A DNA stretch of 54,361 nt, taken from assembly GCA_050298055.1 (NCBI GenBank), contig JBNKTL010000033.1, positions 1 through 54,361 on the forward strand, given 5' to 3'. This document shows, one piece after another, positions 2,183-33,535 of this stretch (positions are counted from its first letter, which is position 1; every line of letters starts with the position of its first letter). The DNA comes from Spirochaetota bacterium (GTDB lineage Bacteria; Spirochaetota; UBA4802; UBA5550). A program made the position numbers and the translations under genes. The notes under the pieces are model-generated. The model searched no databases, was not told the DNA's origin, and worked only from the letters and a program-made list of their open reading frames with translations.

Positions 2183-2185
2183 CCG

Positions 2186-2223: not shown

Positions 2224-2232
2224 CTCAAAATT

Positions 2233-3210: not shown

Positions 3211-3231
3211 TAAACTCAGTCCTTTAATAAA

Positions 3232-3582
3232 TTAACTTTTTTTCCTCGTTTCCTTTTTCTTTTTCCCTGATTTTGGTTTTGGCTCCGGTAATTCTTCCGC
3301 CGTGATCTTTACCAAGCGGCCCATCCACTCTTTATCTTCCAACTGCTCCCCTATGAGAAAATACGGTTTTGCCCCGGGATAAGGAGGAGCTTCAACCATA
3401 TCCTGAATAAAATCTCTTCCCGCGTCAGTGGGTTTTATAAACAGTTGATTGTCGCAGATCAGGGCTATGACCTTCTCGTCACAATAGAGCGCGTATTCCC
3501 CAAACATTTTCCTATACCTTATCACGCCAGCGTTTTCCATCTGCTCAGCAACAAATTCCACAAAACCCTGATCTGACGCCAT
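3232..3582 (-). CDS. TfoX/Sxy N-terminal domain protein
   Basis: RKMFGEYALY, ALICDNQLFIKPT, PPYPGAK. Confidence 0.88.
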   Translation of the reverse strand: MASDQGFVEFVAEQMENAGVIRYRKMFGEYALYCDEKVIALICDNQLFIKPTDAGRDFIQDMVEAPPYPGAKPYFLIGEQLEDKEWMGRLVKITAEELPEPKPKSGKKKKETRKKS

Positions 3583-3894
3583 ACACCCGCCTTCTTATAC
3601 ATTACATAATGGTCTTTTTGAGCCGCACTGTTTTCCGCACCGGCTGTGCCTGAGTAAAACAGAAATCCCTTCATTCCCTCACAATTACAAAAAGGTTTTC
3701 AGAAAAAGTCAACAACAATCGAATGTTATTGAGGTGTTCTCCCGATGGAACCGGCAGTAAAAAATTGAAATTGATACTTCTCATAAACTATTTTTTTCCC
3801 GCCATTCAATATTTTTCTCTTCACGACAATTCTCTTCCTTGACATTTTATCCTAAAAATAGTATGTCATTTATCACACAACAGGAGCGCCATTC

Positions 3895-4947
3895 ATGAAA
3901 AAGATCATTGCCCTCTCTGTACTTATTGTTCCCCTGGCCCTTTCGGGAAAAAACTCCTTTGTCTCGCTGGCCTACACCGAATCCGGTTCGGTGAAAGAAT
4001 ATTCCTTCTTGACCTCATCCCCGGTGATAAAAGGGAGTGTCCCGGAACTCTATGCACGGGGGAAAAGCCTGATAAAAGAAAGAAACTATACCGGGGCCCT
4101 CCCCTATCTGAAGGGTATTATCAGGCAGGGGAAAGACCCCCGGTACCGGGCAGGGGCCTGTTACCTTCTGGGGATCTGTTTCCGGGAAATGAAAAAATAT
4201 GATTGGAGCCTCAAGTCCCTGACAAATGCCGAGGCCTTCCTCTCCCTGAACCGGGGCAAACTGATGAGCGAAGAGGACGATATTCTGGGAAATTTCCATA
4301 CGACATTGGCCCGGATCTACCGGGAGATAAGCCTCACCTATCTGCGATGGAATAAATACGCCAGCGCCATTACTTACCTCTGGCAGTCACGCCGGGTGGG
4401 GGGTGACCCTTACGGACCCGGGGCCTATGAACCGGGGTCATTAAAAATTCTGGCACCGGTAAAGGACACCGCCCAGAAAAAACTTCTGGACTACCCCCTT
4501 TACAGATTCATGGCCGCGCCGGTAAAGGCGCCCACCCTGAAGAGTGTGAGAAAAAGATACTTCAGGACCATAGGAGAAGGCGACAGAAAATTCCGTGACT
4601 TTAAAGCAGAAGCCGGGATAAACGAACCCCTCTTTATGAGACCGCTCCCCGCGGAACCGGTGAAGAATCCTTCCTCAAAGGGGGGACTTTACACCGTGCA
4701 TTATAACCAGAGCGGCAAAATTGTTCTCATTGTACACAATAGTAAAGAGGCGGAAGATTTCAACATCTCCCTCTCTTATCAGAAGGGGAAACCGGTTTCC
4801 TCTCTCCTGGAGTCCCACACCTATCACTACAAATATGCCAGGTTCCATTATGAAAAAGGTAAACTGAAATTTTTAATGATCATAACCATGGAGACCCACA
4901 CGGCCCATTACGGGTTCATGCCCCTGGTGCGGCTTTATGTTTTTTGA
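3895..4947 (+). CDS. Exported TPR-containing hypothetical protein
   Basis: Signal peptide; TPR-like helices (ACYLLGICFREMKKY); AGGAG RBS; TTGACA upstream near 3839. Confidence 0.6.
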   Translation: MKKIIALSVLIVPLALSGKNSFVSLAYTESGSVKEYSFLTSSPVIKGSVPELYARGKSLIKERNYTGALPYLKGIIRQGKDPRYRAGACYLLGICFREMKKYDWSLKSLTNAEAFLSLNRGKLMSEEDDILGNFHTTLARIYREISLTYLRWNKYASAITYLWQSRRVGGDPYGPGAYEPGSLKILAPVKDTAQKKLLDYPLYRFMAAPVKAPTLKSVRKRYFRTIGEGDRKFRDFKAEAGINEPLFMRPLPAEPVKNPSSKGGLYTVHYNQSGKIVLIVHNSKEAEDFNISLSYQKGKPVSSLLESHTYHYKYARFHYEKGKLKFLMIITMETHTAHYGFMPLVRLYVF

Positions 4948-4987
4948 ATAGTAAATTCAGGTTCGTACCGGAATGAGCATGAATTTA

Positions 4988-5713
4988 TTATTCAGGCTCC
5001 CTGAACTCCCCGGTCAGGACCTTAATAAGAACAGGAGTAAACCTTCTCCTTATATTCTGGATCGAATCGGACGGCAGTTCAAATGTGATTAGCTGGATCT
5101 TATTCTCCATGGCCCAGGTCCCGAAGGAGCCGGGAACAGGATACCCGATATCGGTGACAAGGGGCAGGCCGGTCTCCCCGGAGAGCCATTTCCCCAGGGG
5201 AGTGGGCCCCGGGTCATCGATACACTCCATGGGTGCATGAATGGAGATAATGTACTCCGGCCGCAGCTCATCCACCAGTTTCAGGAGCGCGGCTGTCTCC
5301 GGCTCAGAAACAGGTCCCGTACCGGCGGAGAGTTCCGTATCCCGGGGGTTTTCATTGTTCCAGCTGTAACAGACCGGCCTGCTGCTCCAGTCTGATGTGG
5401 GGAAATTCCTGTTCAGGTCTACACCGGAGGCATTGCACCGTGTTCCCCGGGCAAGCCCGTCGGGATTAAGGGCGGGTACTACCGGGCACAGGAGTTCGCC
5501 TTTTGGGATTGTCCTGAGAACAGAGGAGAGGAGAACGGTTGATTCCGGCTCTGTCCCATGCTGGCCGGCAATCACCAGGCAGCTCACAGGACCCTTGCCA
5601 GGTCCAAAGACCTCCAGGGGGGCTCCCGGCCTGCTCATGCCGAAAGTTCTTCTGTTATGATCAATTGTTCCTCTCTTCTCTCTCGGAACCAATTTACTGT
5701 TGAGTTCATCCAT
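4988..5713 (-). CDS. mpaA: Murein tripeptide amidase MpaA-like M14 zinc carboxypeptidase
   Basis: HGTE, NPDG, RCNASGVDLNRNFP, SEPET, GYPVPGSFGTW, ITFELP. Confidence 0.85.
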   Translation of the reverse strand: MDELNSKLVPREKRGTIDHNRRTFGMSRPGAPLEVFGPGKGPVSCLVIAGQHGTEPESTVLLSSVLRTIPKGELLCPVVPALNPDGLARGTRCNASGVDLNRNFPTSDWSSRPVCYSWNNENPRDTELSAGTGPVSEPETAALLKLVDELRPEYIISIHAPMECIDDPGPTPLGKWLSGETGLPLVTDIGYPVPGSFGTWAMENKIQLITFELPSDSIQNIRRRFTPVLIKVLTGEFREPE

Positions 5714-13194: not shown

Positions 13195-14913
13195 ATGGGA
13201 CAATTAAGTGAAAACAGATCCCTCTTCATAAAAATTGCCGTTTATACGCTCTCATATCTCGGTGTATTTCTCCTGGCAATGATACTGTTTACGAAAAACA
13301 ATAACTTCAATGTCATCTATCATCCCGATGAACCGGGAAAGGTCTACCAGGTTAAAACCAACAGCTATAACCTTCATCATCCCCTGCTCATGCTGAACGC
13401 GACCAGGCTTTCGGTGGCCGTAACCGGGGCTGAAAAAGACCAGGATGTTGCGGAGACCGGCAGGACAGTATCGGCCTTATTCGGCGCTTTTTCAATTATT
13501 CTCATCATGATTTCACTGAACATGACATTAGGACTCCCGGCCGCGTTCTCCGCAGGTCTGCTCGCAACATTTTCTCCTCTCATCGTTCAGGCAGCCCATA
13601 TTTTCAAGGAAGATATCTCCCTGCTTTTTGGAATAACGGCTGTTATATTATCTATTTCGCTTTATGATAAATTCAGGAACAGAACAACCCTGGCATTGAC
13701 CGGTATCTCTGCGGCCCTTGCGGCTTCTTCCAAATATATCGGTTTGATTTTTTTGCCCGTGGCCCTTTTCTTTCTCCTTTCGGATAAAACCGTCAGCAAC
13801 GGCCTGACAAGAAGGAAACGCGCGCTGACAATGCTTGCCGTATTTTTTCTCGCAAGCTCTCTCCTGAACTACCAGGCATTTTATTATAAGGATTATATTT
13901 CAGAAAAATTAAGCGTTAAGCTTTCAAAAACCTTCCGGAAACCCGGTCCGGTGAAAAAGCCCCGTAAGGTCAATCTTAAAGATGAATCAACCGATATCAG
14001 TATCGCCAACACACGGCCCTTAAACCGGGCACCCGGAAACGGGAAGAAACTTTCCGGCAATAAAAACCCAAAAGACCATGACAGGGGCGGACTGGCTATT
14101 CTGACCGGCCATGGAGGCGTGGTATCCAGGAGCCCTTTGAAAGAATATATCCGGAAATATTTTAACCATACCGTTCCCGCGATTCCCGTACTGGCAATCC
14201 TTTTTTTCATTATCATGCTTATTAAAAGGAATGAAATAACAGTCCAGTTAAAAGTCATGTTTACTGTTTTCTTCATCTACTTTCTCGTAATCTCACTGGG
14301 GAAATCTACCGCGTCGAGGTATTTTATTCCCATTTCTCTCCTTACCCACGTTTTTGCCGCACTGGGGATTATTAAAATGACCGAATTGCTGGGGAAAAAA
14401 TTTAACAGGGTGCCGGTCACTCCCGTCTCTTTATTCCTCGTCTTAATTCTTATAATCCCCGCTTACTCCAGGGCCGCAAAAATGAACAGAATGTTTGACA
14501 CGTCACGGGACAACAGGAATGAAATGATCACATGGCTCGAGTCCAATATCCACAGTGAAGCGGTAATAGCCGCAGATTCTTATACGCGGCTGAAAAAGAT
14601 GGTCCGGAACATTGCTCCCGAAAAGAGGAAAAAAATAACCGTCAAAGAGATGACATATACCGGGGACCTGGAGAGTATCGGGAACGCACGGAAACTCGGT
14701 ATTACACATATTGTTGTATGCTCAAAATCTTATAATCGTTTTTTTAATAAAAACCTCGTAAGCAGCAGTAAAGCTACCGATACTGTGAGCATGCGAAGAA
14801 AATTTTACTCCGAGTTATTTAAAAATGGCTTGCTGGTATGGGAATCCCGGTATCCTGATACGGGTTCTCTTAATCCGGCGATTAAGATCTATCAACTGGA
14901 AAAAAACCAGTAA
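13195..14913 (+). CDS. ArnT/PMT-like (GT-C) lipid-carrier-dependent glycosyltransferase
   Basis: HPDE loop after TM1, HHPL, KED, SKY and RYFIP motifs; many TM helices; adjacent GT2. Confidence 0.78.
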   Translation: MGQLSENRSLFIKIAVYTLSYLGVFLLAMILFTKNNNFNVIYHPDEPGKVYQVKTNSYNLHHPLLMLNATRLSVAVTGAEKDQDVAETGRTVSALFGAFSIILIMISLNMTLGLPAAFSAGLLATFSPLIVQAAHIFKEDISLLFGITAVILSISLYDKFRNRTTLALTGISAALAASSKYIGLIFLPVALFFLLSDKTVSNGLTRRKRALTMLAVFFLASSLLNYQAFYYKDYISEKLSVKLSKTFRKPGPVKKPRKVNLKDESTDISIANTRPLNRAPGNGKKLSGNKNPKDHDRGGLAILTGHGGVVSRSPLKEYIRKYFNHTVPAIPVLAILFFIIMLIKRNEITVQLKVMFTVFFIYFLVISLGKSTASRYFIPISLLTHVFAALGIIKMTELLGKKFNRVPVTPVSLFLVLILIIPAYSRAAKMNRMFDTSRDNRNEMITWLESNIHSEAVIAADSYTRLKKMVRNIAPEKRKKITVKEMTYTGDLESIGNARKLGITHIVVCSKSYNRFFNKNLVSSSKATDTVSMRRKFYSELFKNGLLVWESRYPDTGSLNPAIKIYQLEKNQ

Positions 14914-14962
14914 CGACTCAGCTATATGACTAAAATATTCATATTTAATAAAAATGCCAATA

Positions 14963-14997
14963 GTATGTCCCCGCCGCGGTCGGCGGCGGGGACATAC
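14963..14997. repeat. Perfect 15-bp-arm palindrome GTATGTCCCCGCCGC-n5-GCGGCGGGGACATAC
   Basis: Exact inverted repeat; second copy in opposite orientation at 28611 with conserved flanks. Confidence 0.85.
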
Positions 14998-15079
14998 CAG
15001 TTGTCTTGTATTCATTAAAATGTCTATTTTAATACATAGCTGAGTAATTATAAAAAATAATTATTAGTCGAGGGAAAAC

Positions 15080-15817
15080 ATGGCAGAAAAAGAGAAAATA
15101 AAAAAAATCTCCTATATTATTCCTGTTTACAATGAGGAAGAGAATATTGAGTCCCTTTATCATGAATTAAAACCTGTAGCTGAAAAAATTGGAAAAAACT
15201 ATGAAATACTTTTCATAGATGATGCAAGTGCAGATAAGTCCCTTGCCATTATTAAAGCACTTTCAAAGAAATCAAAGAATGTCAAATATCTCTCTTTTGA
15301 AAAAAACTGCGGTCAATCAGCCGCCCTCTCCGCCGGGTTTTCACATGCAACCGGTGATGTTATTATCACCATGGACAGCGATATGCAAAACGACCCGAAG
15401 GATATTCCTGATATGCTGGGCCACTACGGCAAATATGATATGGTCAATGGATGGCGATACAACCGGAAGGACACCTTTTCAAAAAAAATCGGGAGCAAAA
15501 TCGGCAATGGTGTAAGAAATCTTTTTTTAGGCGACAATATTAAAGATACGGGATGTTCACTGAAAATTATGCGCGCTTCCCTGCTGAAACGGATAAAGAT
15601 CTTCTATGGACTCCACCGGTTTTTACCGGCACTGATGATGCTGGAGGGGGCCTCCGTAATAGAAGTTAAAGTCAATCACAGGGAAAGGATACACGGAACA
15701 TCCAATTACAGCAATCTCACACGGGCATGGCAGGCCCTTTACGACCTGATTGCAGTAAGGTGGATGATAAAGAAGCAATTAAAATTTAACATAAAGGACA
15801 AAAACATTGGAAAGTAA
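15080..15817 (+). CDS. GT2 polyprenol-phosphate glycosyltransferase (ArnC/DPM synthase-like)
   Basis: IIPVYNEEENI, DDASAD, GQSAAL, MDSDMQNDP, DTGCSLK, HRFLPAL. Confidence 0.9.
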   Translation: MAEKEKIKKISYIIPVYNEEENIESLYHELKPVAEKIGKNYEILFIDDASADKSLAIIKALSKKSKNVKYLSFEKNCGQSAALSAGFSHATGDVIITMDSDMQNDPKDIPDMLGHYGKYDMVNGWRYNRKDTFSKKIGSKIGNGVRNLFLGDNIKDTGCSLKIMRASLLKRIKIFYGLHRFLPALMMLEGASVIEVKVNHRERIHGTSNYSNLTRAWQALYDLIAVRWMIKKQLKFNIKDKNIGK

Positions 15818-16073
15818 AATAATTCTCATAATAGGTTTTGCCGGCCAGGCGGCATTTTTCATGAGATTTTTTGTACAATGGCTTTACTCGGAAAAGTACA
15901 AAAAAAGCGTCATTCCCACGGCATTCTGGTACTTCAGTCTCACAGGGAGCGTCCTCCTTTTAACCTACGCAATATTGAGAAAAGATATTGTCTTCATCGT
16001 CGGGCAATCAACCGGGTTCATTATCTATACAAGAAACCTCTATTTCATTAATAAAGAAAAGGGATATAATTAA
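15807..16073 (+). CDS. Lipid A biosynthesis N-terminal (LAB_N) domain small membrane protein
   Basis: GFAGQAAFFMRFFVQW, SVIPTAFWYFSL, DIVFIVGQ, YTRNL. Confidence 0.88.
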   Translation: MESKIILIIGFAGQAAFFMRFFVQWLYSEKYKKSVIPTAFWYFSLTGSVLLLTYAILRKDIVFIVGQSTGFIIYTRNLYFINKEKGYN

Positions 16074-16468: not shown

Positions 16469-16500
16469 GTAACAGTTTTTACCACAGCTCTTGTTATAAT
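16469..16500 (+). promoter_or_regulatory. Candidate promoter of the barrel gene (ECF-like GTAAC...TGTT, also a perfect extended -10 TGnTATAAT)
   Basis: GTAACagtttttaccacagctcTTGTTATAAT ends 27 nt before ATG 16528. Confidence 0.5.
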
Positions 16501-16527
16501 TAATAACAACAGAAAAGGAGAAAAAAA

Positions 16528-17184
16528 ATGAGACAGTTAACAGGTCTGTTTGTCATAACATTTATTCTGGCTGCCGCCCCGGTCCTCTTTGCGGACGGTG
16601 AAGTCAAAAAGGACAAACCGAAGAAAAAGGACAACCCCCCGCACACACTTATCGGGAACAAGGATGTTACTCTTTCAGGTTACGGAGCACCGGTCTACAA
16701 GTTTTCGCCCGTGGGAGAGACCTACGGTCACTTCGTGGGAGGCCGCGGCGGTTTAATAATTGATGACATCTTTGTTATCGGCGGCGGCGGATACGGACTG
16801 GTCTATCCTGACGAACGGGAGAAGTTCTCCGGAGAAACCTACACCGGGACAGAGCCCTATGTACACATGGGTTACGGCGGAGGAATCCTTGAATTGCATT
16901 TCTTCCCCAAGAGTCTTATTCATATTTCGGCAGGTGTTCTCGTGGGAGCCGGAGGTATAACATTTGACAGCAATAATGAAGACAGTGGTAACAATAACAG
17001 GCAGGGAGACACATTTTTCGTAACGGAACCGGAAGTGAATCTCTTTGTCAATGTGACACGATTTTTCCGGATCGGCATCGGAGCATCATACAGGTATGTG
17101 TATGGAATTAACTCGGAAGAAATTTCGGACAGCGATTTCAGGGGACCTGCGGCACAGGTGATGTTTGCCTTTGGATGGTTCTAA
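16528..17184 (+). CDS. Stand-alone outer-membrane beta-barrel protein, paralog of the caspase C-terminal domain
   Basis: Signal peptide; Gly/aromatic alternating strands; C-terminal FGWF; about 85/170 identical to 19749-20261 with no gaps. Confidence 0.8.
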   Translation: MRQLTGLFVITFILAAAPVLFADGEVKKDKPKKKDNPPHTLIGNKDVTLSGYGAPVYKFSPVGETYGHFVGGRGGLIIDDIFVIGGGGYGLVYPDEREKFSGETYTGTEPYVHMGYGGGILELHFFPKSLIHISAGVLVGAGGITFDSNNEDSGNNNRQGDTFFVTEPEVNLFVNVTRFFRIGIGASYRYVYGINSEEISDSDFRGPAAQVMFAFGWF

Positions 17185-17191
17185 GGGGCAG

Positions 17192-17230
17192 GGAGACACG
17201 GGGAAAAACCCGTGTCTCCGCCTATTTTTT
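17192..17230 (+). terminator. Intrinsic terminator after the barrel gene
   Basis: ggagacacggg-gaaaaa-cccgtgtctcc (11-bp perfect stem) followed by gcctatttttt. Confidence 0.75.
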
Positions 17231-17255
17231 CAGGGGATCTTACGGAAACAAGTAA

Positions 17256-17284
17256 TTGACAGGCTCTCCAAAGAGCAGTATTTT
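17256..17284 (+). promoter_or_regulatory. sigma70-like promoter of the ECF operon
   Basis: TTGACA-17 nt-TATTTT, ending 35 nt before ATG 17320. Confidence 0.5.
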
Positions 17285-17319
17285 TTCCATAAAGATCAGC
17301 CGGGGACCGGAAAGGGCGA

Positions 17320-17805
17320 ATGGAAATAAATATCGAGGATTACTACAGAAAATACGCGCCAATGGTATTAAGAAGATGCAGGTATCTTTTAAAAAATGAG
17401 GACCGGGCAATGGATGCAATGCAGGACACATTTGTAAAACTTCTTCAGTACAGGAACAGGCTTAAAGGAGAATATCCCTCGTCTCTCCTCTACCGCATTG
17501 CCACAAACATCTGCCTTAACATAATTAAAAAAGAGAGTAAAAACCGGGAATTAAGCAGCGACACAATACTCAGCACCATAGCAGGTCTTGACAACTTTGA
17601 GAAGAGGGTATCGGACACCGACCTGCTTGAAAGGATCTTCTCCGGTGAGAAAAGCTCAACCCGGGAGATAGCAGTAATGCACTATATCGATAAGATGACA
17701 TACCACGAGATATCAGGGGAAACGGGACTCTCCGTATCAGGGATAAGAAAGAGACTTGACCGTCTGAAGAAAAAGGGAATAAGCTCTCTGGAGGCCCTCA
17801 GATGA
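17320..17805 (+). CDS. ECF RNA polymerase sigma factor
   Basis: Region 2 (AMDAMQDTF, LYRIATNICLN) and region 4 HTH (MTYHEISGETGLSVSGIRKRL); 161 aa. Confidence 0.92.
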   Translation: MEINIEDYYRKYAPMVLRRCRYLLKNEDRAMDAMQDTFVKLLQYRNRLKGEYPSSLLYRIATNICLNIIKKESKNRELSSDTILSTIAGLDNFEKRVSDTDLLERIFSGEKSSTREIAVMHYIDKMTYHEISGETGLSVSGIRKRLDRLKKKGISSLEALR

Positions 17806-18611
17806 AAAGGGACCTGTTACCGGAAATAATCCTTGAACGATACCTCCTCAATGAGCTTCCCGAAGAAAAAGCGAAAGAAATTGAGGCGTACATCCGGGAA
17901 AATCCCCGTGAAGCCGCCCGTCTTGATGAGCTCAGAGAATCAAACCGGAAGATCCTTGAAGAATATCCACCTGAAATCCGGACACCGATTATACGGGAAG
18001 CCTATGAAAGGGAAACGAAAAAGAAAGAGAGAAAATCCGCAATGGGTCTCCCCGGTTTTCTTAAAATCGCGTTTCCCGCGGGGGCCCTGGCGCTGTTTAT
18101 TTTTTCATTCTTCTTCACGGGTACAGAAGATAACATTTTAAACAGGGACATTACCAACGGGAACGGCGAGGTAACACGGATCAAAGGCCGGGAGGACAGC
18201 CTCTCCATTTTCAGGAAAACAGGCGCAGAGGTTCAGCCGCTTAAAAACGGCGATATCGTAAAGGAGAGTGACCTTCTTCAAATCGCTTACCGGGTCACCA
18301 CCGGCAGGTACGCGGTGATTCTCTCCATGGACGGCAGAGGATCCGTCACCCTTCACCTCCCCGAGAAACCGGACAGCTCCCCCAGGGTCAACCCGGGAAA
18401 GACCGTTTATCTTAAAAATTCCTATGAACTTGACGATGCCCCGGGGTTCGAAAGGTTTTTCCTCCTTGTTTCAAAGAATAAAATTAATATTGACAGCATC
18501 ATTAAGCGGGCGGAAGTATTGGCAAAAAACAGGGAGAGGGTGAGAACCGGGAAACTTGACGCGGGTAAACAGGTACGGGAAGTATCATTCATATTGAAAA
18601 AAAAGGATTAA
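17802..18611 (+). CDS. Putative anti-sigma factor: N-terminal ASD-like region, one TM helix, RIKG motif, DUF4384-like periplasmic domain
   Basis: ATGA overlap with sigma; LERYLLNEL; TM (IAFPAGALALFIFSFFF); SMDGRGSVTLHLP, SYELDDAPGFERFF. Confidence 0.75.
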   Translation: MKRDLLPEIILERYLLNELPEEKAKEIEAYIRENPREAARLDELRESNRKILEEYPPEIRTPIIREAYERETKKKERKSAMGLPGFLKIAFPAGALALFIFSFFFTGTEDNILNRDITNGNGEVTRIKGREDSLSIFRKTGAEVQPLKNGDIVKESDLLQIAYRVTTGRYAVILSMDGRGSVTLHLPEKPDSSPRVNPGKTVYLKNSYELDDAPGFERFFLLVSKNKINIDSIIKRAEVLAKNRERVRTGKLDAGKQVREVSFILKKKD

Positions 18612-18617
18612 GATGCC

Positions 18618-20261
18618 ATGAAAAGAGCAGTCACCATATCTCTTATTACACTCTTTATTCATTCTCTTTCGGGAACCTCTTTTACGGACCGGGCATGGGG
18701 AAAGGAGATAATCCACCGCTATGCCATTGTGGTGGGGGCCAATGACGGGGGGCCCGCGCGGATAAGGCTGAAATACGCGGTCTCCGATGCCGGCCAGTTT
18801 ATGAATGTTCTGAACAACCTGGGGGGGGTCCCGGAAGAGAACAGCGTACTCCTCTTTGACCCTGACGTGAGAAACTTTGCATCCGCGTTCAGGAAGATCC
18901 GGAGGAAGGTAAAGGAGAGGGAAAGCAGCAGCAGGAGAATTGAGTTCTTCTTCTATTTTTCGGGACATTCGGACGAAGAAGGGATCCTGCTGGGACGGGA
19001 AAAGCTTTCATATAAAAAGATCAAGAAATCCATCGAATATATCCCCGCGGATTTCAGGATAGCCATACTCGATTCCTGCTCATCAGGGGCCTTTACCCAG
19101 GTCAAGGGGGGAAGGAAGAGGCCTCCCTTCCTCTTCGATGAGTCGCATAACATGAAGGGGAATGCCATCCTCACATCGAGCTCCTCAGACGAAGTATCGC
19201 AGGAATCCGACAGGATAAAGGGTTCCTTTTTCACACACTACCTGGTGACCGGTCTCAGGGGAGCGGCAGACGTAACCCAGGACAGCAGAATCACCCTGAA
19301 CGAGGCGTACCAGTTCGCCTATTCCGAGACCCTTTCGCGGACGGAAAAGACCCTGAGCGGACCGCAGCACCCCAACTACAACATACAGATGACCGGAACG
19401 GGAGACGTTATTCTCACGGACATCAGGAAAGGGGCCGCAAAACTCATACTGTCAAGAAACCTCACGGGCAAATTTTTCATCAACGACCATGAGGATATCC
19501 TGGTGTCCGAATTCAGAAAAGCATACGGGAGAACAATGAGCATCGGCCTGGACAGCGGCGCCTACTCCGTTATTAACCAGAGACGCGACGGTACCTACCA
19601 GGCAAAGATCAGGCTCACGGGGAGGAGATCACAGACTCTTGCCATGGGGCATTTCTCAAAAACGGAGACCGAGACAACATATTCACGGGGAGGCCGTTCA
19701 AAAGAAGAAAAAGACAGTGTGCTGATCCCGGATTTTCACAGGCTGAAATTTTCCGGTTACGGCGCTCCCGTGGTCTCATTCGGAAAAGCCGGCAGCACAC
19801 TGGGGACCTACGTGGGGGGCAAGGGGGGACTTATTATCAACAGGCATTATGTGATTGGCGGAAGCGGTTTCGGGCTTGCCTGGCCGAACAAGAGGGAAGA
19901 AATCACCGGGGACCCCTATACGGGGGACAGACCCATAGTGGGGATGGGTTACGGGGGAGGAATGCTTGAATATATTTTTTCACCGTCAACCCTGGTAAAC
20001 GCCACAGCCGGGTTAGTGATCGGCGGAGGAGGGATTGGAGTTTCGGATACGGTGAACAGCGGCAACAGTAATGAGACCCGGAATGACACTTTTTTTATCA
20101 TTGAGCCTGATATCAACCTTTCCCTGAACGTAACCTGGTTCTTCAGGCTGAGCTTCGGCATCTCATACAGGTATGTAAACGGTATTGATACCTATGAGTT
20201 CAAGGACAGTGATTTCAGCGGGTTCAACGCAAGGATCACCCTGTCATTCGGTGTCTTTTAG
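18618..20261 (+). CDS. Exported caspase-like peptidase (C14) fused to a C-terminal outer-membrane beta-barrel
   Basis: Signal peptide; YAIVVGAN, LKYAVSDA, YFSGHS (His), ILDSCSSG (Cys), GSFFTH, QHP; barrel ending FGVF. Confidence 0.88.
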   Translation: MKRAVTISLITLFIHSLSGTSFTDRAWGKEIIHRYAIVVGANDGGPARIRLKYAVSDAGQFMNVLNNLGGVPEENSVLLFDPDVRNFASAFRKIRRKVKERESSSRRIEFFFYFSGHSDEEGILLGREKLSYKKIKKSIEYIPADFRIAILDSCSSGAFTQVKGGRKRPPFLFDESHNMKGNAILTSSSSDEVSQESDRIKGSFFTHYLVTGLRGAADVTQDSRITLNEAYQFAYSETLSRTEKTLSGPQHPNYNIQMTGTGDVILTDIRKGAAKLILSRNLTGKFFINDHEDILVSEFRKAYGRTMSIGLDSGAYSVINQRRDGTYQAKIRLTGRRSQTLAMGHFSKTETETTYSRGGRSKEEKDSVLIPDFHRLKFSGYGAPVVSFGKAGSTLGTYVGGKGGLIINRHYVIGGSGFGLAWPNKREEITGDPYTGDRPIVGMGYGGGMLEYIFSPSTLVNATAGLVIGGGGIGVSDTVNSGNSNETRNDTFFIIEPDINLSLNVTWFFRLSFGISYRYVNGIDTYEFKDSDFSGFNARITLSFGVF

Positions 20262-21388: not shown

Positions 21389-22735
21389 CTATTTTTCAAC
21401 AACAATGTCAAAATAACTTTTTCCGTCCCGCAGGGTATACTTGTCAAAATCTATTTTTTTCCCGGCAGGCCTGTGCCGGTACCTGCTCCATTTTACCTTC
21501 ATCCCGGTAAAAAGAGAGTAGATACCAACTGCCAGTCCGAGGGCTATCTCATTCTGTTTCCGGGTAAGAATATACCGGTCACTCCCGCGCCTCAGGTAGC
21601 CCAGCTCAAAGAGGGGGCTGACGGCATTCATGTGAAGGGGAACGATCCAGGTCCCGACGTACGGTTTGCCGATAATGAGATTCCCCGGCTTCACCCCCTT
21701 CCCGTGGAGAGAGTACTGCATAAACTTTATCAGCTCATACGCGGCATAGAGATTGTCCCCTCCATACCCGTAGTATCCCCCTTCTCTCCTGTAGCTTTCA
21801 AACACTGACTTTTCCCTCTCCCAGAACCTCCCCGAGGGGACCACATCGTTGTAATCAACAGAGTACCTGCTCCCCCGGGGATGACCTGCCGCTTTTTTTT
21901 CCCAGCCGGGACCGTCCCTGTACGCCCATGTCACCATGTTGTACCTGTACCCCCTGAAATCACCCGGATCCGGGGTCAGGTCCCCTTTGAGATGAAATGA
22001 AGTAAAATAGAACGAGACATCATCAAGGTAGCAGTACCAGTCGTCCCTCAGGTCCCTGCTGAGACACCAGTTCCTGTACCTGAATTTTTTCCTGAAGTAC
22101 CGTGACCTCTCCTTATCCTGAACATACCTGAGCCCCCTGTAGAGCACACGGTAGGGTACCGCGATAACCGGGCTCATTCCCCTGTAATACCTGCTCCCCC
22201 GTGACGCGAGATGCAGGGAGACCACCAGGTGAGGTTTTAAAGCATTAATGCGTGATATCTTTCCCTTTATCATCCTGCCTTTGCTGTCAGGAAAATCAAA
22301 AAACCTGTACCCGGCATTGGGGTCATCCGTTTTTGCGGCAGTACCGGGAGAGATTGACTTTTCCCGGCTCATGAAGGTCTGCAGATATATTCGGGGAAAT
22401 TTTATCCCGGTAAACTGCCGTGCAAGTCTTTTAAACCTCCAGAATTCACCTCCCGGTTCACAGTACCTGAGTATCCTTGCCGTTTTCACCGCAATGCTGT
22501 AGACAATCTCATGTTCTTTTAGTCCCCGGTACTTCGCGCCATACTTGAACGGATCGAGATACTCTCCGGACAGGGGATCGTAGCGGTCACCGTGCCGGGA
22601 CTGGGGCTCTTTGCTTACGCCCCCATGCCCGGGATTCAGGACGACCCGGTAAACCGGAACAGTCATCTTTTCAGGATAAAGGGGCCCCGATACCGGTAAA
22701 AGGAAAAAAAATATAAGAGAAATTTTCTTCAGCAT
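21389..22735 (-). CDS. N-acetylmuramoyl-L-alanine amidase (Amidase_3 fold) with large insertions
   Basis: VVLNPGHGG, E in KEHEI, VSLHL and FELGY Zn/catalytic motifs; signal peptide. Confidence 0.75.
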   Translation of the reverse strand: MLKKISLIFFFLLPVSGPLYPEKMTVPVYRVVLNPGHGGVSKEPQSRHGDRYDPLSGEYLDPFKYGAKYRGLKEHEIVYSIAVKTARILRYCEPGGEFWRFKRLARQFTGIKFPRIYLQTFMSREKSISPGTAAKTDDPNAGYRFFDFPDSKGRMIKGKISRINALKPHLVVSLHLASRGSRYYRGMSPVIAVPYRVLYRGLRYVQDKERSRYFRKKFRYRNWCLSRDLRDDWYCYLDDVSFYFTSFHLKGDLTPDPGDFRGYRYNMVTWAYRDGPGWEKKAAGHPRGSRYSVDYNDVVPSGRFWEREKSVFESYRREGGYYGYGGDNLYAAYELIKFMQYSLHGKGVKPGNLIIGKPYVGTWIVPLHMNAVSPLFELGYLRRGSDRYILTRKQNEIALGLAVGIYSLFTGMKVKWSRYRHRPAGKKIDFDKYTLRDGKSYFDIVVEK

Positions 22736-26459: not shown

Positions 26460-27347
26460 ATGAAAAAATTTCTTTATATTATATTACTCTGGTCACTTAT
26501 TTTTACTACACAGTGTAAAAAGGAGAAGAAACAGGCGGTAGCCTTCGGACTGATAAACCTTGTTACGGGAAATGTAACATTAGATGACGGGGAAACGAAA
26601 AAACCCGCGGCACTTGGAGACAAAGTGGGTTCGGGGATGATCATAACAACAGGAAGTAAATCACTGGTTGACATCTATTTTGGAGTCAATGTTGTCAGGG
26701 TCACGGATAATTCCGTCCTGGAAGTTACGGAATACCTGAAAGAGACGGCAGCCGGGGGTGAGAAAACAGACCTTATGCTGAAAAAGGGAGCAGCGTACTC
26801 AAAGGTGGTAAAAAAACTCTCGAAACAGGATGTCTACACCATCGGGACACCCACAGCCGTGGCGTCGGTCAGGGGTACCGAATTCCTGGTCAGGGAAAAG
26901 GACGGGAAGAGTAATGTGGCCTGCCTTGACGGAAAGGTCTCGGTAAGACAGCCGGAAAAGCAGGAAACGGATTCCGTCCTCCTGAAGCAGGGCCAGGAAG
27001 TTGACGTGGAAGCGGGAAAAGCGCTTTCCGTGAGGGAACTCAAGGAAGAGAACCTCAACAATATAAGGAAAGTCCTTGATGATATCAAGGAGATGAAGCT
27101 GGAGATACGGGCAAAATTCGAAGAGCAAAAGGCTGAAATAAAGAAAAAGCTTGAAGACCAGAAAGAAGCAAACAGGCAGATGCTCCAGGACCAGAAGGAT
27201 AAAAACAGGGAAAATATCCAGTCCCAGAAGGATAAGGGCAAAGAGCAGATCTCCACTATCAAGGACACCGTCAAAGAAAAAAAGGATGAGATCAAGCCCG
27301 ATCTTAAGGGTGTTAAACCGACGATCAAGAAGCCGGAGTTAAAATAG
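26460..27347 (+). CDS. FecR-domain (LipL45-like) lipoprotein with C-terminal coiled coil
   Basis: Lipobox TTQ-C; TPTAVASVRGTEF FecR signature; Lys/Glu/Gln-rich coiled coil. Confidence 0.8.
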   Translation: MKKFLYIILLWSLIFTTQCKKEKKQAVAFGLINLVTGNVTLDDGETKKPAALGDKVGSGMIITTGSKSLVDIYFGVNVVRVTDNSVLEVTEYLKETAAGGEKTDLMLKKGAAYSKVVKKLSKQDVYTIGTPTAVASVRGTEFLVREKDGKSNVACLDGKVSVRQPEKQETDSVLLKQGQEVDVEAGKALSVRELKEENLNNIRKVLDDIKEMKLEIRAKFEEQKAEIKKKLEDQKEANRQMLQDQKDKNRENIQSQKDKGKEQISTIKDTVKEKKDEIKPDLKGVKPTIKKPELK

Positions 27348-27505: not shown

Positions 27506-28576
27506 GTGAAGGGAAAAGTCCATACCGCCGGAGTGGTCTTTCGTGAAAGAGCCTTTCTCTTCATCACGGTCATTCGGACCATCCCGTTCCTTTTTGCTGC
27601 CGGTTTTTTCCTGATACTCAAAATCAGGGGGATTTTTGATTTTGAGACATCGGAAGAATCACTCTCTCTCCTTCATGACATGGGTACAGAATACTTTCCC
27701 GAATTTATTCTGCCAGTTATTGTTATTTACACTGTCATTTTTTATTTCAACCATAAAAAGATCAGGCAAAAAGCAAATCCTGTAAGGCATTTAAACAAAA
27801 ACCGTGATCCCGCGAAAGCCGGGAAGATGGAAAAGGCACGCATGAACAGGGCGAAGCAGCTTCTTTTTTTTGAATTGAAAAAGACCGTCATTAATACACT
27901 GGTACTCCTGGTCAGCGCTGCCGTTATTACCTTCTTTATTATAAGTTTGGTCGATAAAAACAGGTATGAAGCCACTCCTTTGAAAAATATTTCCTGGTCA
28001 CTCTTCGCACTTTTCGGTATAGGTTTCTGGACATTCAGCAGGTTGAGGAATATTTTAGAAAACAGCGACCTCTGGAACATCATGTATGAATCATTCCCGG
28101 AAAAGCTTTCGGGGCCGGATCTCATAAACCACGGGTTCTTTCGGGGAAATGAAGCGCTGATCAGGTGGCTCGATTCTTTCTGGGCGGAACCGTTAAAGAT
28201 CAATTACGCGCAAAAGGGGAGCGGGTTTGCCCTTGAAAAGGAAGGGATACAGATATATCTCTTTTGGGATTGCGCTTCATCTTCAATCCTCTATCTTTTC
28301 ATAGCTGCCATGCTTCCGGAGGGAAGCCGTGACGCCAACGGCAAATTAAAAGAATTTACAGATTACATTGAAGACCGGGACTTTGATCTTTCTCTTTTCC
28401 CGGAAGGCATTTATATGAAAGGGAGAGAAGACAGGATCTATTCTCTGCTGAAAGAATACAGGGAATATGGCGGCGAAGCGACAATGCTTACTGATATTCT
28501 GAAAAGGATACTGCAGTCAATAAAAAAACTGGGGGGACAACCCGGGCCTTATTATCCATCTTTTATTAATGAGTAA
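27506..28576 (+). CDS. Hypothetical membrane protein
   Basis: 356-aa ORF; four hydrophobic segments followed by a soluble domain. Confidence 0.6.
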   Translation: MKGKVHTAGVVFRERAFLFITVIRTIPFLFAAGFFLILKIRGIFDFETSEESLSLLHDMGTEYFPEFILPVIVIYTVIFYFNHKKIRQKANPVRHLNKNRDPAKAGKMEKARMNRAKQLLFFELKKTVINTLVLLVSAAVITFFIISLVDKNRYEATPLKNISWSLFALFGIGFWTFSRLRNILENSDLWNIMYESFPEKLSGPDLINHGFFRGNEALIRWLDSFWAEPLKINYAQKGSGFALEKEGIQIYLFWDCASSSILYLFIAAMLPEGSRDANGKLKEFTDYIEDRDFDLSLFPEGIYMKGREDRIYSLLKEYREYGGEATMLTDILKRILQSIKKLGGQPGPYYPSFINE

Positions 28577-28610
28577 TTTACTTATTAGTATTCATTAAAA
28601 AAAAGAACTG

Positions 28611-28645
28611 ATATGTCCCCGCCGCCTTCGGCGGCGGGGACATAT
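28611..28645. repeat. Perfect 16-bp-arm palindrome ATATGTCCCCGCCGCC-ttc-GGCGGCGGGGACATAT
   Basis: Exact inverted repeat; same family as 14963. Confidence 0.85.
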
Positions 28646-28888
28646 TGTTGATATTTTACTCAACAGGTTGATTATGTCAATAGGGATGTAATATTAATAT
28701 TATTTCATGTTTACCAAAAAACAACTGTTTGCGTTACATGCTTTCGGCAGTGCGAAGTTGGTTTTTTTATTATTCTTATATTGAGCCTGAACAGGTGCGT
28801 TTTTTAATTTTTCCTGATTTCCAATAATTTTCTTTGACAGGGGAGATAAATAATTTATAGTATTCATAAAGTGATTGTGTGGTGCATC

Positions 28889-30196
28889 ATGAAAAACTTT
28901 CTTTTCCTGTTCATAATCGTGCTGATGGTCCCCCTGAGGCTGAATTCCGAGATCGTCTACATGAAAGACGGCCAGATATTAAAGGGATCGATTATCAGAG
29001 AGGACAGGAGCACTCTTATCGTAAAAACCAGGTTCCAGACAAGAAAAATATACCGGGACCATGTAAAGAGGATACTCTATGGTGACCGTGAAATGGAGAG
29101 TATTAATATACTCCTCAAAAGCGGAGAGATCTTAAAGGGCTACCTTGTTGACCAGGACGCGAAGCAGGTGATCTTCAGGGAAAAGAAGGACGCTACCTGG
29201 AATGAAGTAAAGAGTGAAACTGTCATCCACGACGGGGGAACAGGGGCGGTTTCATCCACGCTCCTTTCCAACGGTTATTTTTTAATTTCATACAGAGACT
29301 ATGATGATACCTATAAAGGTAAGTATGTTATTTTGGACACGGATAGCTGGAAAATTGCAAAGACAGAGTCTATTTTCCACGATGCTCAGACACTTTATAT
29401 TTCACCAATGGCCATGTCCGATGGAAATATACTTTTCGCCTATGGCGATCAGGACGATTCTGTCTATGGAAAATATGTTGTTATTGATAAAGCATTAAGC
29501 CATATTAAGGTATCAAGTGACGCGATAATCAACGGCATCACCCTCACATCCCGTGACAGTTACTGGCTCAATAACCTGGTATCCGTGAACAACTCCAAAC
29601 TCACCCTCAAATGGTGCGACATCTGCAGCAACAACTCATCAACCTCCAACCAGACCGCGGAAGCGGTTCACACAAACGGTGAACTGGTGGTCCAAAACTG
29701 CAGGTTTTACGGAAACGACGGGGGGATCTTTGCCGGATCGGGAAAAGTCCGTATCATCGACTCCCAGTTCTATAACAACGGGAAGGGCTATGCCCTTCAC
29801 ATGGACGGCCCCGCCGTTTCATACGGTGATGTTCTCATCAACCATGCGGACTTCTTCAACAACTACGGGGGCATTAGGCTGGAGAACAACAACGGAGCCA
29901 ATGAAATAATTAAGAACTCAGTTTTTCATATGAACAGAAACGGAGGTATCACAGCGGACAGCAGGGTAACGCTGAACAACTCGGTCTTTACGGATACGTA
30001 CACGGGGATGGCCCCGGGTACTGACGTTGTGGATTCGGACCCGTTGTATCTCAATGAGGGGACCCCCGATTTTGGATATATCGATCTCTTCATTCAAACG
30101 GTCCTCCTGGGGTATCCGGCTGATTCTCCCGCAAAGGGCCTGGGGGACGACCTGCGTAACGCCGGGGCGTATGATTCGGGTTATGCGGGGGAATGA
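28889..30196 (+). CDS. Exported mosaic protein: two small SH3-like repeats, two propeller-like blades, parallel beta-helix
   Basis: Signal peptide; MKDGQILKG and LKSGEILKG repeats; two ~50-aa repeats ending GKYV; FYGN/FYNN/FFNN beta-helix rungs; SPA..G..AGAY terminus; TTGACA-16-TATAGT upstream. Confidence 0.6.
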   Translation: MKNFLFLFIIVLMVPLRLNSEIVYMKDGQILKGSIIREDRSTLIVKTRFQTRKIYRDHVKRILYGDREMESINILLKSGEILKGYLVDQDAKQVIFREKKDATWNEVKSETVIHDGGTGAVSSTLLSNGYFLISYRDYDDTYKGKYVILDTDSWKIAKTESIFHDAQTLYISPMAMSDGNILFAYGDQDDSVYGKYVVIDKALSHIKVSSDAIINGITLTSRDSYWLNNLVSVNNSKLTLKWCDICSNNSSTSNQTAEAVHTNGELVVQNCRFYGNDGGIFAGSGKVRIIDSQFYNNGKGYALHMDGPAVSYGDVLINHADFFNNYGGIRLENNNGANEIIKNSVFHMNRNGGITADSRVTLNNSVFTDTYTGMAPGTDVVDSDPLYLNEGTPDFGYIDLFIQTVLLGYPADSPAKGLGDDLRNAGAYDSGYAGE

Positions 30197-30413
30197 AAAC
30201 GGTTTTTAATTGACCTCGTTCCACCGCCACCGGAGCGCCCTTTCCCTATGGAGAGGGCTCCTTAGTATAAAACTTTATCTGTTTTCATATTTGCCACCAC
30301 AGATGAGAAAGATGGATATAATATATGGAAAAATAATAAAAATATTATTGCCTAAACACTCATTGAATATAAAGTGAAAAAATATTTCTTTCAACAGGCA
30401 ATTACAGATAAAA

Positions 30414-30620
30414 ATGATGTTAAAAATATTTTTTTTCACTTTATATTTTCTTTTAATCAATAAGATGGCATTCGCGTATCTTGATCCGGGATCAGGAAGC
30501 TATTTATTTCAGCTCCTGATCGCGGCATTTATCGGCGCGATTTTCTCATTGAAATTATACTGGAAAAAATTCTCAACTTGTGTAAAAAAGCTCCTTGGCC
30601 GGAAACAAGACGCAAAATAA
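30414..30620 (+). CDS. Small membrane protein with AFA|YLDPGSGS motif
   Basis: Signal-like N-terminus, YLDPGSGS, TM helix and basic tail; TAATG overlap with the next gene. Confidence 0.8.
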   Translation: MMLKIFFFTLYFLLINKMAFAYLDPGSGSYLFQLLIAAFIGAIFSLKLYWKKFSTCVKKLLGRKQDAK

Positions 30621-32017
30621 TGGAAAAAATATATTCATCCTTCCGGGACCCCGACGGATTTGTTTTCAAACATAATAACCGGGTTTACAGGGCCGTTACA
30701 GATTCGGGGAAACAGAATTTCGAAAATCTTATTAATACGGGACTCTATAAAGAATTAACAAACAAAAGACTGCTGATAAATCATGAAGTGGTCAATGACG
30801 CCCGGCTCCGGGAAAAAACAGGGGAGAAATTTCCTTTATTAAAGGACTCCCTTTACACACTGATAAAACCCGAACCGGTCCCTTTTGTTTCCTACTCCTA
30901 CGAATGGTGCTTTTCCCAGCTGAAAAGCGCCGCTCTGGCAACACTGGAGATCCAGCGGACCGCATTGGGATACGGGATGTCACTGAAGGACGGCAGCGCA
31001 TTCAATATTCAATTTCTAAACAATGATCCGGTCCATATTGATACCTTATCATTTGAACAATATACTGAGAACGAACCCTGGGCCGCCTACGGACAGTTCT
31101 GCAGGCATTTTCTCGCGCCGCTGGCGTTAATGAAATACAGGGACTTGAATCTCAACAAACTGCTGCAGGTATACCTGGACGGGGTCCCTTTAAACGTTTC
31201 TTCCCGGATCCTCCCTCTTAAGAGCAGGTTTTCTTTCGGCATATTACTGCATATTCATTTACATTCAAAAGCGGATAAAACTTTAAAAACAAAAAGTTCA
31301 CAATCCAAAAAGATCAGCAAACATTCACTGCTGGGAATAATTGATTCACTGGAAACGGCCATTGAAAAAATTAACATTAAGCAAAGCGAATCAGAATGGA
31401 CGGGCTATTATAATAACCTGACTTATTCCAAAGAATCTTTCGCGCACAAAAAGGAGATTGTATCGGAATTACTGGATAAAATTAACGTAAAAACATTATG
31501 GGACATCGGGGCCAATACCGGGGAGTTCAGCCGGCTTGCGGCGGAGAAGGGGATTGCTACTCTCTCAATAGACGCTGACCCCCACACCGTTGAAAGGAAC
31601 TACCGGGAAAGCATGAAGCAGAACACCGGAAACATTCTTCCCCTCTGTATTGATATCTGCAATCCAAGCCCCGGTTTGGGCTGGAGCCAAAGGGAAAGAA
31701 TGCCGCTCATGGAGAGAGCTCCCGCGGACGCGGTCCTGGCACTGGGAATCATTCATCATCTTGTCACGGGCAATAATCTTTCCTTTGAAATGATCGCCGG
31801 GTTCTTCGGCAGGATCTGCAAAAATCTTATAATCGAATTTGTTCCCAAAGACGATCCCGGGGCAAAGCAGCTGCTGAGATTCAGGAAGGATATTTTCACA
31901 GATTATTCTCAAAAGGTTTTTGAATCTGCTTTTTCAGATTTGTTTTCCATTAAATCACAAACACCTGTTAAAGGAACCGGCAGAATTATCTATTTAATGC
32001 AAAGGAAGGGCCTTTGA
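30620..32017 (+). CDS. Kinase-like domain fused to a class I SAM methyltransferase
   Basis: SFRDPDG, LKDGSAFN (DxxxxN), IDTLS; then WDIGANTG, SIDAD, ALGIIHHL; ATG 30620. Confidence 0.75.
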   Translation: MEKIYSSFRDPDGFVFKHNNRVYRAVTDSGKQNFENLINTGLYKELTNKRLLINHEVVNDARLREKTGEKFPLLKDSLYTLIKPEPVPFVSYSYEWCFSQLKSAALATLEIQRTALGYGMSLKDGSAFNIQFLNNDPVHIDTLSFEQYTENEPWAAYGQFCRHFLAPLALMKYRDLNLNKLLQVYLDGVPLNVSSRILPLKSRFSFGILLHIHLHSKADKTLKTKSSQSKKISKHSLLGIIDSLETAIEKINIKQSESEWTGYYNNLTYSKESFAHKKEIVSELLDKINVKTLWDIGANTGEFSRLAAEKGIATLSIDADPHTVERNYRESMKQNTGNILPLCIDICNPSPGLGWSQRERMPLMERAPADAVLALGIIHHLVTGNNLSFEMIAGFFGRICKNLIIEFVPKDDPGAKQLLRFRKDIFTDYSQKVFESAFSDLFSIKSQTPVKGTGRIIYLMQRKGL

Positions 32018-33522: not shown

Positions 33523-33535
33523 ATTCATACACATT

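Follow-up and report, generated by a model that had tools for sequence, protein, structure and literature searches.

Could a caspase-fold protease held in the outer membrane of a bacterium control a sigma factor of the extracytoplasmic function (ECF) type on the other side of the envelope? The question is raised by four adjoining genes, with a predicted promoter, at positions 16469 to 20261 of a 54,361-nucleotide (nt) stretch of DNA from a Spirochaetota bacterium (GenBank assembly GCA_050298055.1, contig JBNKTL010000033.1), which at its full length is referred to here as the window. The genes encode a stand-alone outer-membrane-type barrel, an ECF sigma factor, a putative membrane anti-sigma, and a caspase-fold protease that carries a barrel of its own; the last three are called the triad below. 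The answer that we favor, with moderate confidence, is that the locus encodes a trans-envelope switch of the kind known as regulated intramembrane proteolysis (RIP), in which the caspase-fold protease would act as the dedicated site-1 enzyme and the sigma factor would then transcribe a protease-free copy of the protease's tail. The anatomy of the proteins, the linkage of the genes, the promoter and its placement, and a motif shared by the anti-sigma and the protease all rest on computation, and every catalytic and signaling step is inferred from them. The genes and their signals are as follows.

16528-17184, + strand: stand-alone outer-membrane-type barrel, 218 amino acids (aa), with a signal peptide-like N terminus and a C-terminal Phe
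17320-17805, + strand: ECF sigma factor, 161 aa, with Pfam and NCBIfam matches
17802-18611, + strand: anti-sigma, 269 aa, consisting of an anti-sigma domain (ASD), a transmembrane (TM) helix, a linker, and DUF4384
18618-20261, + strand: caspase-barrel fusion, 547 aa, consisting of a signal peptide, a C14 caspase domain, an immunoglobulin-like (Ig-like) domain, a linker, and an 8-strand barrel
16469-16498, + strand: predicted cognate ECF promoter, with the -35 element GTAACA at 16469-16474, a 17-nt spacer, and the -10 element TGTTnnA at 16492-16498
17186-17231, + strand: intrinsic terminator-like hairpin and T-run, directly 3' of the barrel gene
17256-17284, + strand: weak sigma70-like promoter candidate for the triad, TTGACA-17-TATTTT, 10 of 12 consensus positions

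All four open reading frames (ORFs) lie on the + strand, and rechecking of their coordinates bore out the original prediction of four co-oriented genes, with the stop codon of the sigma gene overlapping the start of the anti-sigma gene in an ATGA (17802-17805) and 6 nt between the anti-sigma stop and the caspase start. The four genes are probably not one transcript. The hairpin has a folding energy of -29.4 kcal/mol (z -4.3), and none of 200 shuffled sequences was equally stable; because this strong hairpin and T-run follow the barrel gene, that gene probably has its own ECF-driven transcript, with the triad transcribed separately or by read-through. Sigma70-like sites in the region are near chance, with 7 found versus 5.6 expected. 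A terminator conserved between stand-alone genes and sigma genes was also considered and rejected; z fell below -3 in just 7 of 17 comparable loci, and such a terminator is therefore not general. GC content is unremarkable, and there was no Rfam match.

The product of the second gene matches Pfam Sigma70_r2 and Sigma70_r4_2, both over the cut-off, and TIGR02937 (ECF) at 64 bits against a cut-off of 43, and it is short and contains the sigma2 and sigma4 regions only, as an ECF sigma factor should. The anti-sigma has an N-terminal helical domain, one TM helix at approximately residues 87 to 106, a disordered linker at 107 to 126, and an Ig-like DUF4384 domain at 131 to 268 that is predicted to be periplasmic. 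A TM-like segment was present in 66 of 68 anti-sigma homologs, the two misses being truncated ORF calls. Fold matches of middling strength connect the N-terminal helices to RslA (Z 6.3) and to MucA (Z 6.2), and the NF052375 match (E 7e-5) is under its cut-off, as is the Pfam match to DUF4384 (E 6.5e-5). Among the homologs, DUF4384 was found at an E value of 0.01 or below in 28 of 68 and zf-HC2 in 2 of 68, and the HxxxCxxC zinc ligands that define zinc-binding anti-sigma domains are absent from the window protein. A fold search with the anti-sigma gave generic Ig folds with a best Z of 9.2, and the CRISPR-associated anti-sigma Csx30 was not among the matches. The helical, ASD-like N terminus, the single TM helix, and the position of the gene at +1 are features of class I (ASD) transmembrane anti-sigmas; as judged from sequence and model, the third gene thus likely encodes the membrane anti-sigma that had been proposed. 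A site-2 protease, as RIP cascades use, is also at hand in the genome, where an M50 gene of the RseP type has two PDZ stretches (G000:C15).

The fourth gene had been described as encoding a signal peptide, an intact C14 His/Cys dyad, and a C-terminal outer-membrane-type barrel, and the structure model and fold matches agree with this in each part.

18966-19079, + strand: catalytic dyad, H117 (18966-18968) and C154 (19077-19079), invariant in the alignments
19749-20258, + strand: C-terminal 8-strand barrel domain, caspase residues 378 to 547, from the structure model

The protein matches Peptidase_C14 (PF00656) at 42.9 bits against a cut-off of 21.4 (E 6e-11), H117 and C154 are invariant in two alignments of 88 and 68 homologs, and a signal peptide-like N terminus with an intact dyad was found in 68 of 68 caspases. 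An AlphaFold model built on the 88-row alignment, with a predicted local distance difference test score (pLDDT) of 84, divides the protein into a caspase domain (residues 30 to 270), a beta-sandwich (272 to 350), a disordered linker (353 to 372), and an 8-strand barrel (378 to 545). Its fold matches are metacaspase 4 (Z 20.9), MALT1 (Z 18.8), and, for the barrel, NspA (Z 17.2, root mean square deviation 2.6 over 150 residues) and OprF (Z 16.0). The caspase fold and the His-Cys dyad are those of clan CD, Peptidase C14. Residues D57 and D152 are invariant and align to metacaspase Asp positions, making them candidate acidic S1 residues of the C14B type. The barrel has eight antiparallel strands, three long loops (423 to 439, 477 to 489, and 522 to 534) on one side, and a C-terminal aromatic residue, all as in barrels of the OmpA/NspA type; the fused copy is so assigned by the model and the stand-alone copy by its 49% identity to the fused one. 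The topology of OmpA and NspA gives a basis for orienting such a barrel. In the model the long loops lie on the side opposite both termini, and by this analogy the protease would face the periplasm.

Are these genes together by accident? Loci for comparison were selected by caspase similarity, and kin among them are not independent. A pattern scan provided 16, and a search of 401 genomes of the phylum gave matches in 59 genomes at 63 places, of which 57 were taken (the window itself, four places with short flanks, and one partial match were omitted). Including the window there were 74 loci, or 70 distinct ones after removal of 4 duplicates, and a metagenome set was made from the best 80 of 429 loci, reduced to 78 by dropping 2 duplicates. 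Named hosts include Spirochaetota, Aminicenantes, and FCPU426. Sigma and anti-sigma genes were directly upstream of the caspase gene in 69 of the 70 distinct loci, and the triad was present in 44 of 47 metagenome loci having more than 1,500 nt upstream. This linkage is far beyond chance, and the neighborhood survey suggested with the original prediction therefore upholds the conserved association of the three genes. The single exception, L015, has a caspase gene without an adjacent sigma or anti-sigma gene, with a copy of the promoter motif described next (20.7 bits) directly upstream.

What the sigma factor transcribes may be judged from the upstream regions, which share the motif GT[AG]AC[AG]-N17-TGTTnnA. 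The strict pattern occurs before 13 of 16 stand-alone genes lying upstream of the sigma gene, 4 of 4 lying downstream, 33 of 51 sigma genes that head the unit, and 0 of 17 sigma genes that follow a stand-alone gene; 0.35 of 88 shuffled regions would be expected to match. Such a bipartite target promoter at its own locus, recognized here by conservation, is characteristic of an ECF sigma factor. Because it precedes the stand-alone genes and never the sigma genes behind them, the upstream barrel gene is the likely output of the sigma factor, which is what the original prediction had proposed. The window site at 16469 scores 23.3 bits with a matrix trained without the window and is the top site of the 4.7-Mb genome; since the other genome matches are at chance and two shuffled genomes gave 2 and 0 matches above 20 bits, its position and not its rank carries the weight. 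A wider regulon was not supported by the genome scan: 4 further sites exceeded 18 bits, two shuffled genomes gave 7 and 1 such sites, and a convincing gene followed none of the 4. Held-out stand-alone genes exceeded 14 bits in 7 of 7 new linked cases and in 2 of 3 testable unlinked cases from genomes with an 8-strand caspase, and in 0 of 8 cases from genomes without a caspase match in the 401-genome search and 0 of 3 from genomes whose caspase has another tail. Among the metagenome loci, the 14-bit level was passed by 32 of the 47 regions ahead of a leading sigma gene and by all 3 stand-alone genes. A further 26 sites of at least 18 bits were found in the 70 loci, 18 of them before stand-alone genes, 3 before genes for TonB-receptor-like proteins of approximately 790 aa, and 5 before other ORFs.

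Two side results concern this motif. The gene for the approximately 790-aa TonB-dependent-receptor-like protein adjoins the sigma gene upstream in L005, L008, L060, and also L003, with its own promoter copy in three loci and a plug domain confirmed for one; in L005, ExbD/TonB-like genes precede it. The motif is nearly palindromic (6 of 88 reverse-strand matches), and an operator for a dimeric repressor was considered and rejected: the left GTGAC pairs with a right TGTT 21 times and with TGTC once, and the downstream A is one-sided.

The same promoter data bear on an unlikely alternative, that the caspase is itself an output, an envelope protease induced by the sigma factor for the maturation or clearance of outer-membrane proteins such as the stand-alone barrel, with the anti-sigma sensing stress alone via DUF4384. 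Where the sigma gene comes first, the whole triad is driven by the promoter, at L015 it stands directly before the caspase gene with no sigma gene beside it, and the remaining promoter targets in the loci resemble envelope proteins, each of which would be expected of such a system. It leaves unexplained, however, the near-invariant tight coupling of the genes and the motif shared by the anti-sigma and the caspase loop, and in the window the hairpin parts the ECF promoter from the triad, as would be expected if the protease were a constitutive sensor.

The switch that we favor would place a copy of the protease's own tail under the sigma factor, and the sequences agree with this. The stand-alone barrel is 49% identical over 189 aa to caspase residues 360 to 547 (E 2e-50) and, by sequence, is a paralog of the caspase's own barrel. 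It has no match in Pfam or NCBIfam, and its neighbors in the ESM Atlas are unnamed clusters and one OMP_b-brl set. Across the family the core of caspase and Ig-like domains is constant and the tail differs. In the 70 loci, 18 tails are 8-strand barrels, 5 are of a type of approximately 295 aa, 38 consist of LA_2272 repeats and a C-terminal domain, and 9 are others, including a CsgG-like domain with Kelch and a tail of 54 aa. At least 10 changes of tail class were counted on a FastTree tree of the caspase core (no bootstrap). Hidden Markov models of the tail classes, applied to every ORF of a locus, picked out a stand-alone tail-like gene at 21 of the 70 loci (divided by class into 12, 5, and 4) and at 3 of the 78 metagenome loci; each of these 24 neighboring genes is of the same class as the tail of the adjacent caspase, and the loci that have one are scattered over several separate parts of the core tree. 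Unlinked stand-alone copies also occur in some genomes. On the 8-strand tree, stand-alone copies group with their cognate fused copy in three supported clades (L009; L049/L052; L072); elsewhere the stand-alone copies form groups among themselves, and the tree does not resolve the pair in the window. The match between stand-alone gene and tail is thus one of class and, through the pairing in three clades, partly one of lineage. Strict concerted evolution of each pair was considered and rejected, the cognate tail being the top match for only 6 of 22 stand-alone copies and some of these copies forming their own clade. The original interpretation, an outer-membrane caspase cutting the anti-sigma with the upstream barrel as output, is on these results supported in part; it had missed both the paralogy of that barrel to the caspase tail and the interchangeable, sometimes non-barrel, tails.

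Individual loci show how far the tails vary. In L101 (close relative, L102) the triad caspase ends in a CsgG-like domain and a Kelch propeller, and in L098 in a CsgG-like domain and a barrel-like end (genomes G264 and G244). G264 has four triads that differ in their tails. The L096 caspase (G341:C35) stops 54 aa past the Ig-like domain, without a membrane anchor and with promoter and motifs intact, and in L066 two tandem stand-alone paralogs of the caspase tail lie upstream of the sigma gene.

A more specific form of the switch, which we put forward tentatively as a possibility, would make the fusion an integrated sensor. A copy of an outer-membrane protein would be fused to a periplasmic caspase; binding, clustering, or an assembly block of that class of protein would fire the protease; the same K-G cut would be made in its own loop and in the anti-sigma; the sigma factor would make an unfused replacement or decoy; and a swap of tail would retarget both input and output.

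If the protease does act on the anti-sigma, where might it cut? Three sites in the two proteins are candidates.

18174-18188, + strand: T-R-I-K-G, anti-sigma residues 125 to 129, candidate site-1 cut after K128
19095-19109, + strand: T-Q-V-K-G (consensus T-R-x-K-G) in the loop that follows the catalytic Cys, candidate for self-processing or for a role as pseudosubstrate
19686-19691, + strand: R357-G358 at the start of the linker between the Ig-like domain and the barrel, candidate release site

The anti-sigma alignment has 6 invariant columns, and K128, at the end of the disordered linker, is one of them. Among the homologs, K128 is present in 68 of 68, G129 in 67 of 68, and R126 in 65 of 68, and 65 of 68 have the pattern RxKG, for which the background rate is 0.06 per 270 aa; these counts were made after the conserved residues had been noticed in the alignments. 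Of 71 more distant anti-sigmas, 43 were parsed (28 unparsed), and every one of the 43 retains K-G. The loop right after the catalytic Cys of the caspase reads T-R-x-K-G-G, with K163 and G164 in 68 of 68 and R161 in 50 of 68 proteins, and its KG is present in 78 of 78 metagenome loci; the loop is a low-confidence part of the structure model. Its counterpart in effector caspases is the loop cleaved upon activation, and enzymes of subfamily C14B cleave after Arg or Lys by means of S1 Asp residues (PMC4357240). At the start of the Ig-to-tail linker, R or K is found in 64 of 68 proteins and G in 64 of 68. Homology between the anti-sigma and the caspase was rejected (hhalign probability 1.5%), which leaves shared recognition as the best reading of the motif that the two have in common.

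A complex was modeled from caspase residues 28 to 360 and anti-sigma residues 108 to 269. The interface score ipSAE was 0.46 (0.53, 0.46, and 0.38 in the single runs), and the best control scored 0.02; contact agreement among runs was at least 73% and partner pLDDT at least 80. In calibration, 116 of 157 solved complexes reached the mark set for ipSAE, as did 2 of 215 mismatches; 18 of the 157 and both mismatches did so with scores of 0.60 or below. The prediction lends weak support to contact between the caspase and the anti-sigma. The shared (R)xKG, the acidic S1 pocket, the RseP-type gene, and the complex prediction lend indirect support to the proposed site-1 step, in which the caspase would probably free the sigma factor by cutting the anti-sigma.

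In another arrangement, which we regard as rather unlikely, the caspase binds and shields the anti-sigma, or is itself blocked by the RxKG linker acting as a pseudosubstrate, until signal-driven self-cleavage of the caspase breaks the contact and general periplasmic proteases degrade the anti-sigma. The linkage, the shared motif, and the weak complex prediction are compatible with this arrangement as well, and the revised model of TonB transducers offers a parallel: in the Fox system the anti-sigma is bound and protected by the signaling domain of the transducer, which itself undergoes cleavage (PMC11637429). A cut site would nonetheless be the simpler explanation for one invariant Lys-Gly in an exposed linker beside the membrane.

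In the switch that we favor, the events would run as follows. The barrel would sit in the outer membrane, with the N-terminal Ig-like and caspase domains hanging into the periplasm. A cue on the tail, be it ligand binding, clustering, or failed assembly, would activate the protease, which would cleave itself at K163-G164 and perhaps be released from its anchor at R357-G358. It would dock on the DUF4384 domain and cut the anti-sigma linker after K128, the RseP-type protease would finish the anti-sigma, and the sigma factor would be freed. Transcription from GTAACA-N17-TGTT would then yield, in this genome, essentially one gene product, the protease-free copy of the caspase's barrel, which may do the job that the sensor monitors or may titrate the signal as negative feedback.

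Several points weigh against this switch. A caspase tethered to the outer membrane would have to reach a candidate cut site near the inner membrane. Since some tails are not barrels (CsgG-like with Kelch, or 54 aa), outer-membrane tethering is not required, and since the stand-alone paralog adjoins no more than 21 of the 70 distinct loci and 3 of the 78 from metagenomes, it is accessory and not core. The window's own caspase loop has Gln for the Arg of RxKG, and RxKG is absent from 15 of 66 more distant anti-sigmas (51 of 66 keep it). KG is short, and its conservation could be structural. The ipSAE of 0.46 is a score without an interface and falls in the range in which passes prove wrong more often than right, except where contact was likely beforehand. 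The promoter was missed in 12 of 51 sigma-first loci and in 15 of 47 from the metagenomes.

Could the module instead serve in defense? The barrel might be a phage or toxin receptor, and the activated caspase might kill or arrest the cell by broad proteolysis in the manner of PCaspase. Known pairings of caspases and sigma factors do sit in immune loci (Csx29/Csx30, PCaspase, and DdvA), and the window caspase has a weak PADLOC caspase match (E 1e-4). The protease is exported, however, the predicted regulon is one barrel gene, the window neighbors are housekeeping or envelope genes, and no plasmid match was found among 72,556 records, and we consider an anti-phage or cell-death function very improbable.

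Just upstream of the module (13195-16073) are PMT_2 glycosyltransferase, GT2, and LAB_N genes, a trio resembling surface glycosylation or lipid A-modification genes; it was not conserved beside the module in the loci inspected. A cluster of M48, C92, and M14 peptidase-family genes lies at 1364-5713. Downstream, on the - strand, 21389-22735 encodes an exported protein of 448 aa whose match to Amidase_3 is weak and split (E 3e-5, under cut-off). Five consecutive ORFs of 356 to 502 aa at 27506-34912 have no Pfam match at an E value of 1e-8 or below, and a FecR-domain gene (26460-27347) precedes them. A GAD-like/type VI secretion system (T6SS) Tdi1_C immunity-type protein is encoded at 36871-37461 (- strand), with no obvious cognate toxin among the scanned ORFs.

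The locus is real and conserved, and its mechanism is not described in the literature searched; a full-text search found no description of this system, with most subscription papers outside its reach. If the proposed switch is correct, it would give a signaling role, that of site-1 protease of an anti-sigma acting from the outer membrane, to a large bacterial caspase-fold family. The caspase profile matches 2,856 clusters (50% identity) at an E value of 1e-30 or below, not all of which need be in triads. The switch would also add a new class of protease to RIP and make DUF4384 a caspase docking domain. The candidate cut site K128, a C154A mutant, and the 30-bp promoter make the role of bacterial caspases outside immunity directly testable. 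The swappable tail and matching output gene suggest a modular sensor design, and if the fusion is an integrated sensor, it would represent death-receptor-like trans-envelope caspase signaling with a matched decoy, again not described in the literature searched.

How does the window system compare with those already known? Operons of an ECF sigma factor, a TM hypothetical protein, and a metacaspase have been listed from Myxococcus xanthus DK1622, other Deltaproteobacteria, Ralstonia, and Fibrobacter (Asplund-Samuelsson et al. 2012, PMC3501461), with rows for MXAN_4950, MXAN_6682, and Fisuc_0911. These have the same gene order as the window triad, the comparison being one of gene order and not of sequence, and the original prediction was right that similar triads were known from annotations. 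The available part of that paper gives the operon pattern without anti-sigma assignment, barrel, promoter, cut site, or mechanism, and the M. xanthus operons end in lipoprotein genes, whereas the window module has a paralogous barrel; this locus adds the matched stand-alone paralog as a likely, promoter-defined output, with controls. No confirmation was obtained for a link to the M. xanthus act operon (ActD): literature searches gave no pertinent result, although two metacaspases in the dataset of that paper are labeled "ActD-like protein". ECF25 sigma factors, of Spirochaetes, Deltaproteobacteria, and Fibrobacteres, have single-pass +1 anti-sigmas with zinc-binding and/or DUF4384 domains (Casas-Pastor et al. 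2021, PMC7826278 supplement). Their promoter is given as GGAAC/GTC for subgroups s1 and s2, versus GT[AG]AC[AG]/TGTT in the window motif; the available part of the supplement mentions no caspase and reports no motif for the other subgroups.

A precedent for cleavage is found in type III-E CRISPR systems, where cutting of the anti-sigma Csx30 by the caspase-like Csx29 (PMC10028731) releases an ECF sigma factor, CASP-sigma, as proposed for the window system; one group of Csx30 C-terminal domains is DUF4384 (bioRxiv 10.1101/2022.08.17.504292). Csx29, however, is a CHAT protease activated by RNA binding of Cas7-11, whereas the window protease is an exported C14 enzyme with an outer-membrane tail and its anti-sigma spans the membrane. 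The TPR-CHAT protein and Cas7-11 of type III-E have no counterpart here, the protease being C14 and no Cas family having been found among the window ORFs scanned. In DdvS/DdvA of M. xanthus the anti-sigma is also a TM protein, and its periplasmic caspase-fold domain is the proposed site-1 protease on the juxtamembrane linker, followed by RseP (PMC11506125). There the CHAT domain is inside the anti-sigma, cleavage is only proposed, and the output is CBASS (cyclic oligonucleotide-based antiphage signaling system) and CRISPR, whereas the window has a separate protease on the other membrane and a predicted barrel output. PCaspase is a C14 protease that cuts a sigma factor and many other proteins (bioRxiv 2023.06.23.546230). 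With the MALT1 paracaspase (caspase-Ig3) and the metacaspases, both C14B, the window protease has in common a caspase fold followed by a beta-sandwich, a His-Cys dyad, and acidic S1 residues (PMC4357240), and it differs from them in being bacterial, exported, and, as predicted, membrane anchored, with 13 to 18% identity.

TonB transducers are the classic route from the outer membrane to an ECF sigma factor (PMC11637429). Both these transducers (Fox) and DegS-RseA-RseP resemble the window system in having an outer-membrane protein, an inner-membrane anti-sigma, an ECF sigma factor, and a response that includes the receptor type itself. The window system differs in having no TonB receptor, STN/FecR domain, or HtrA/PDZ site-1 protease; its outer-membrane part is an 8-strand barrel, its four proteins gave no FecR or STN match, and the protease is carried on that small barrel. 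The features tested place the window system outside the TonB, DegS, and type III-E families, and it would work like RIP joined to cell-surface signaling.

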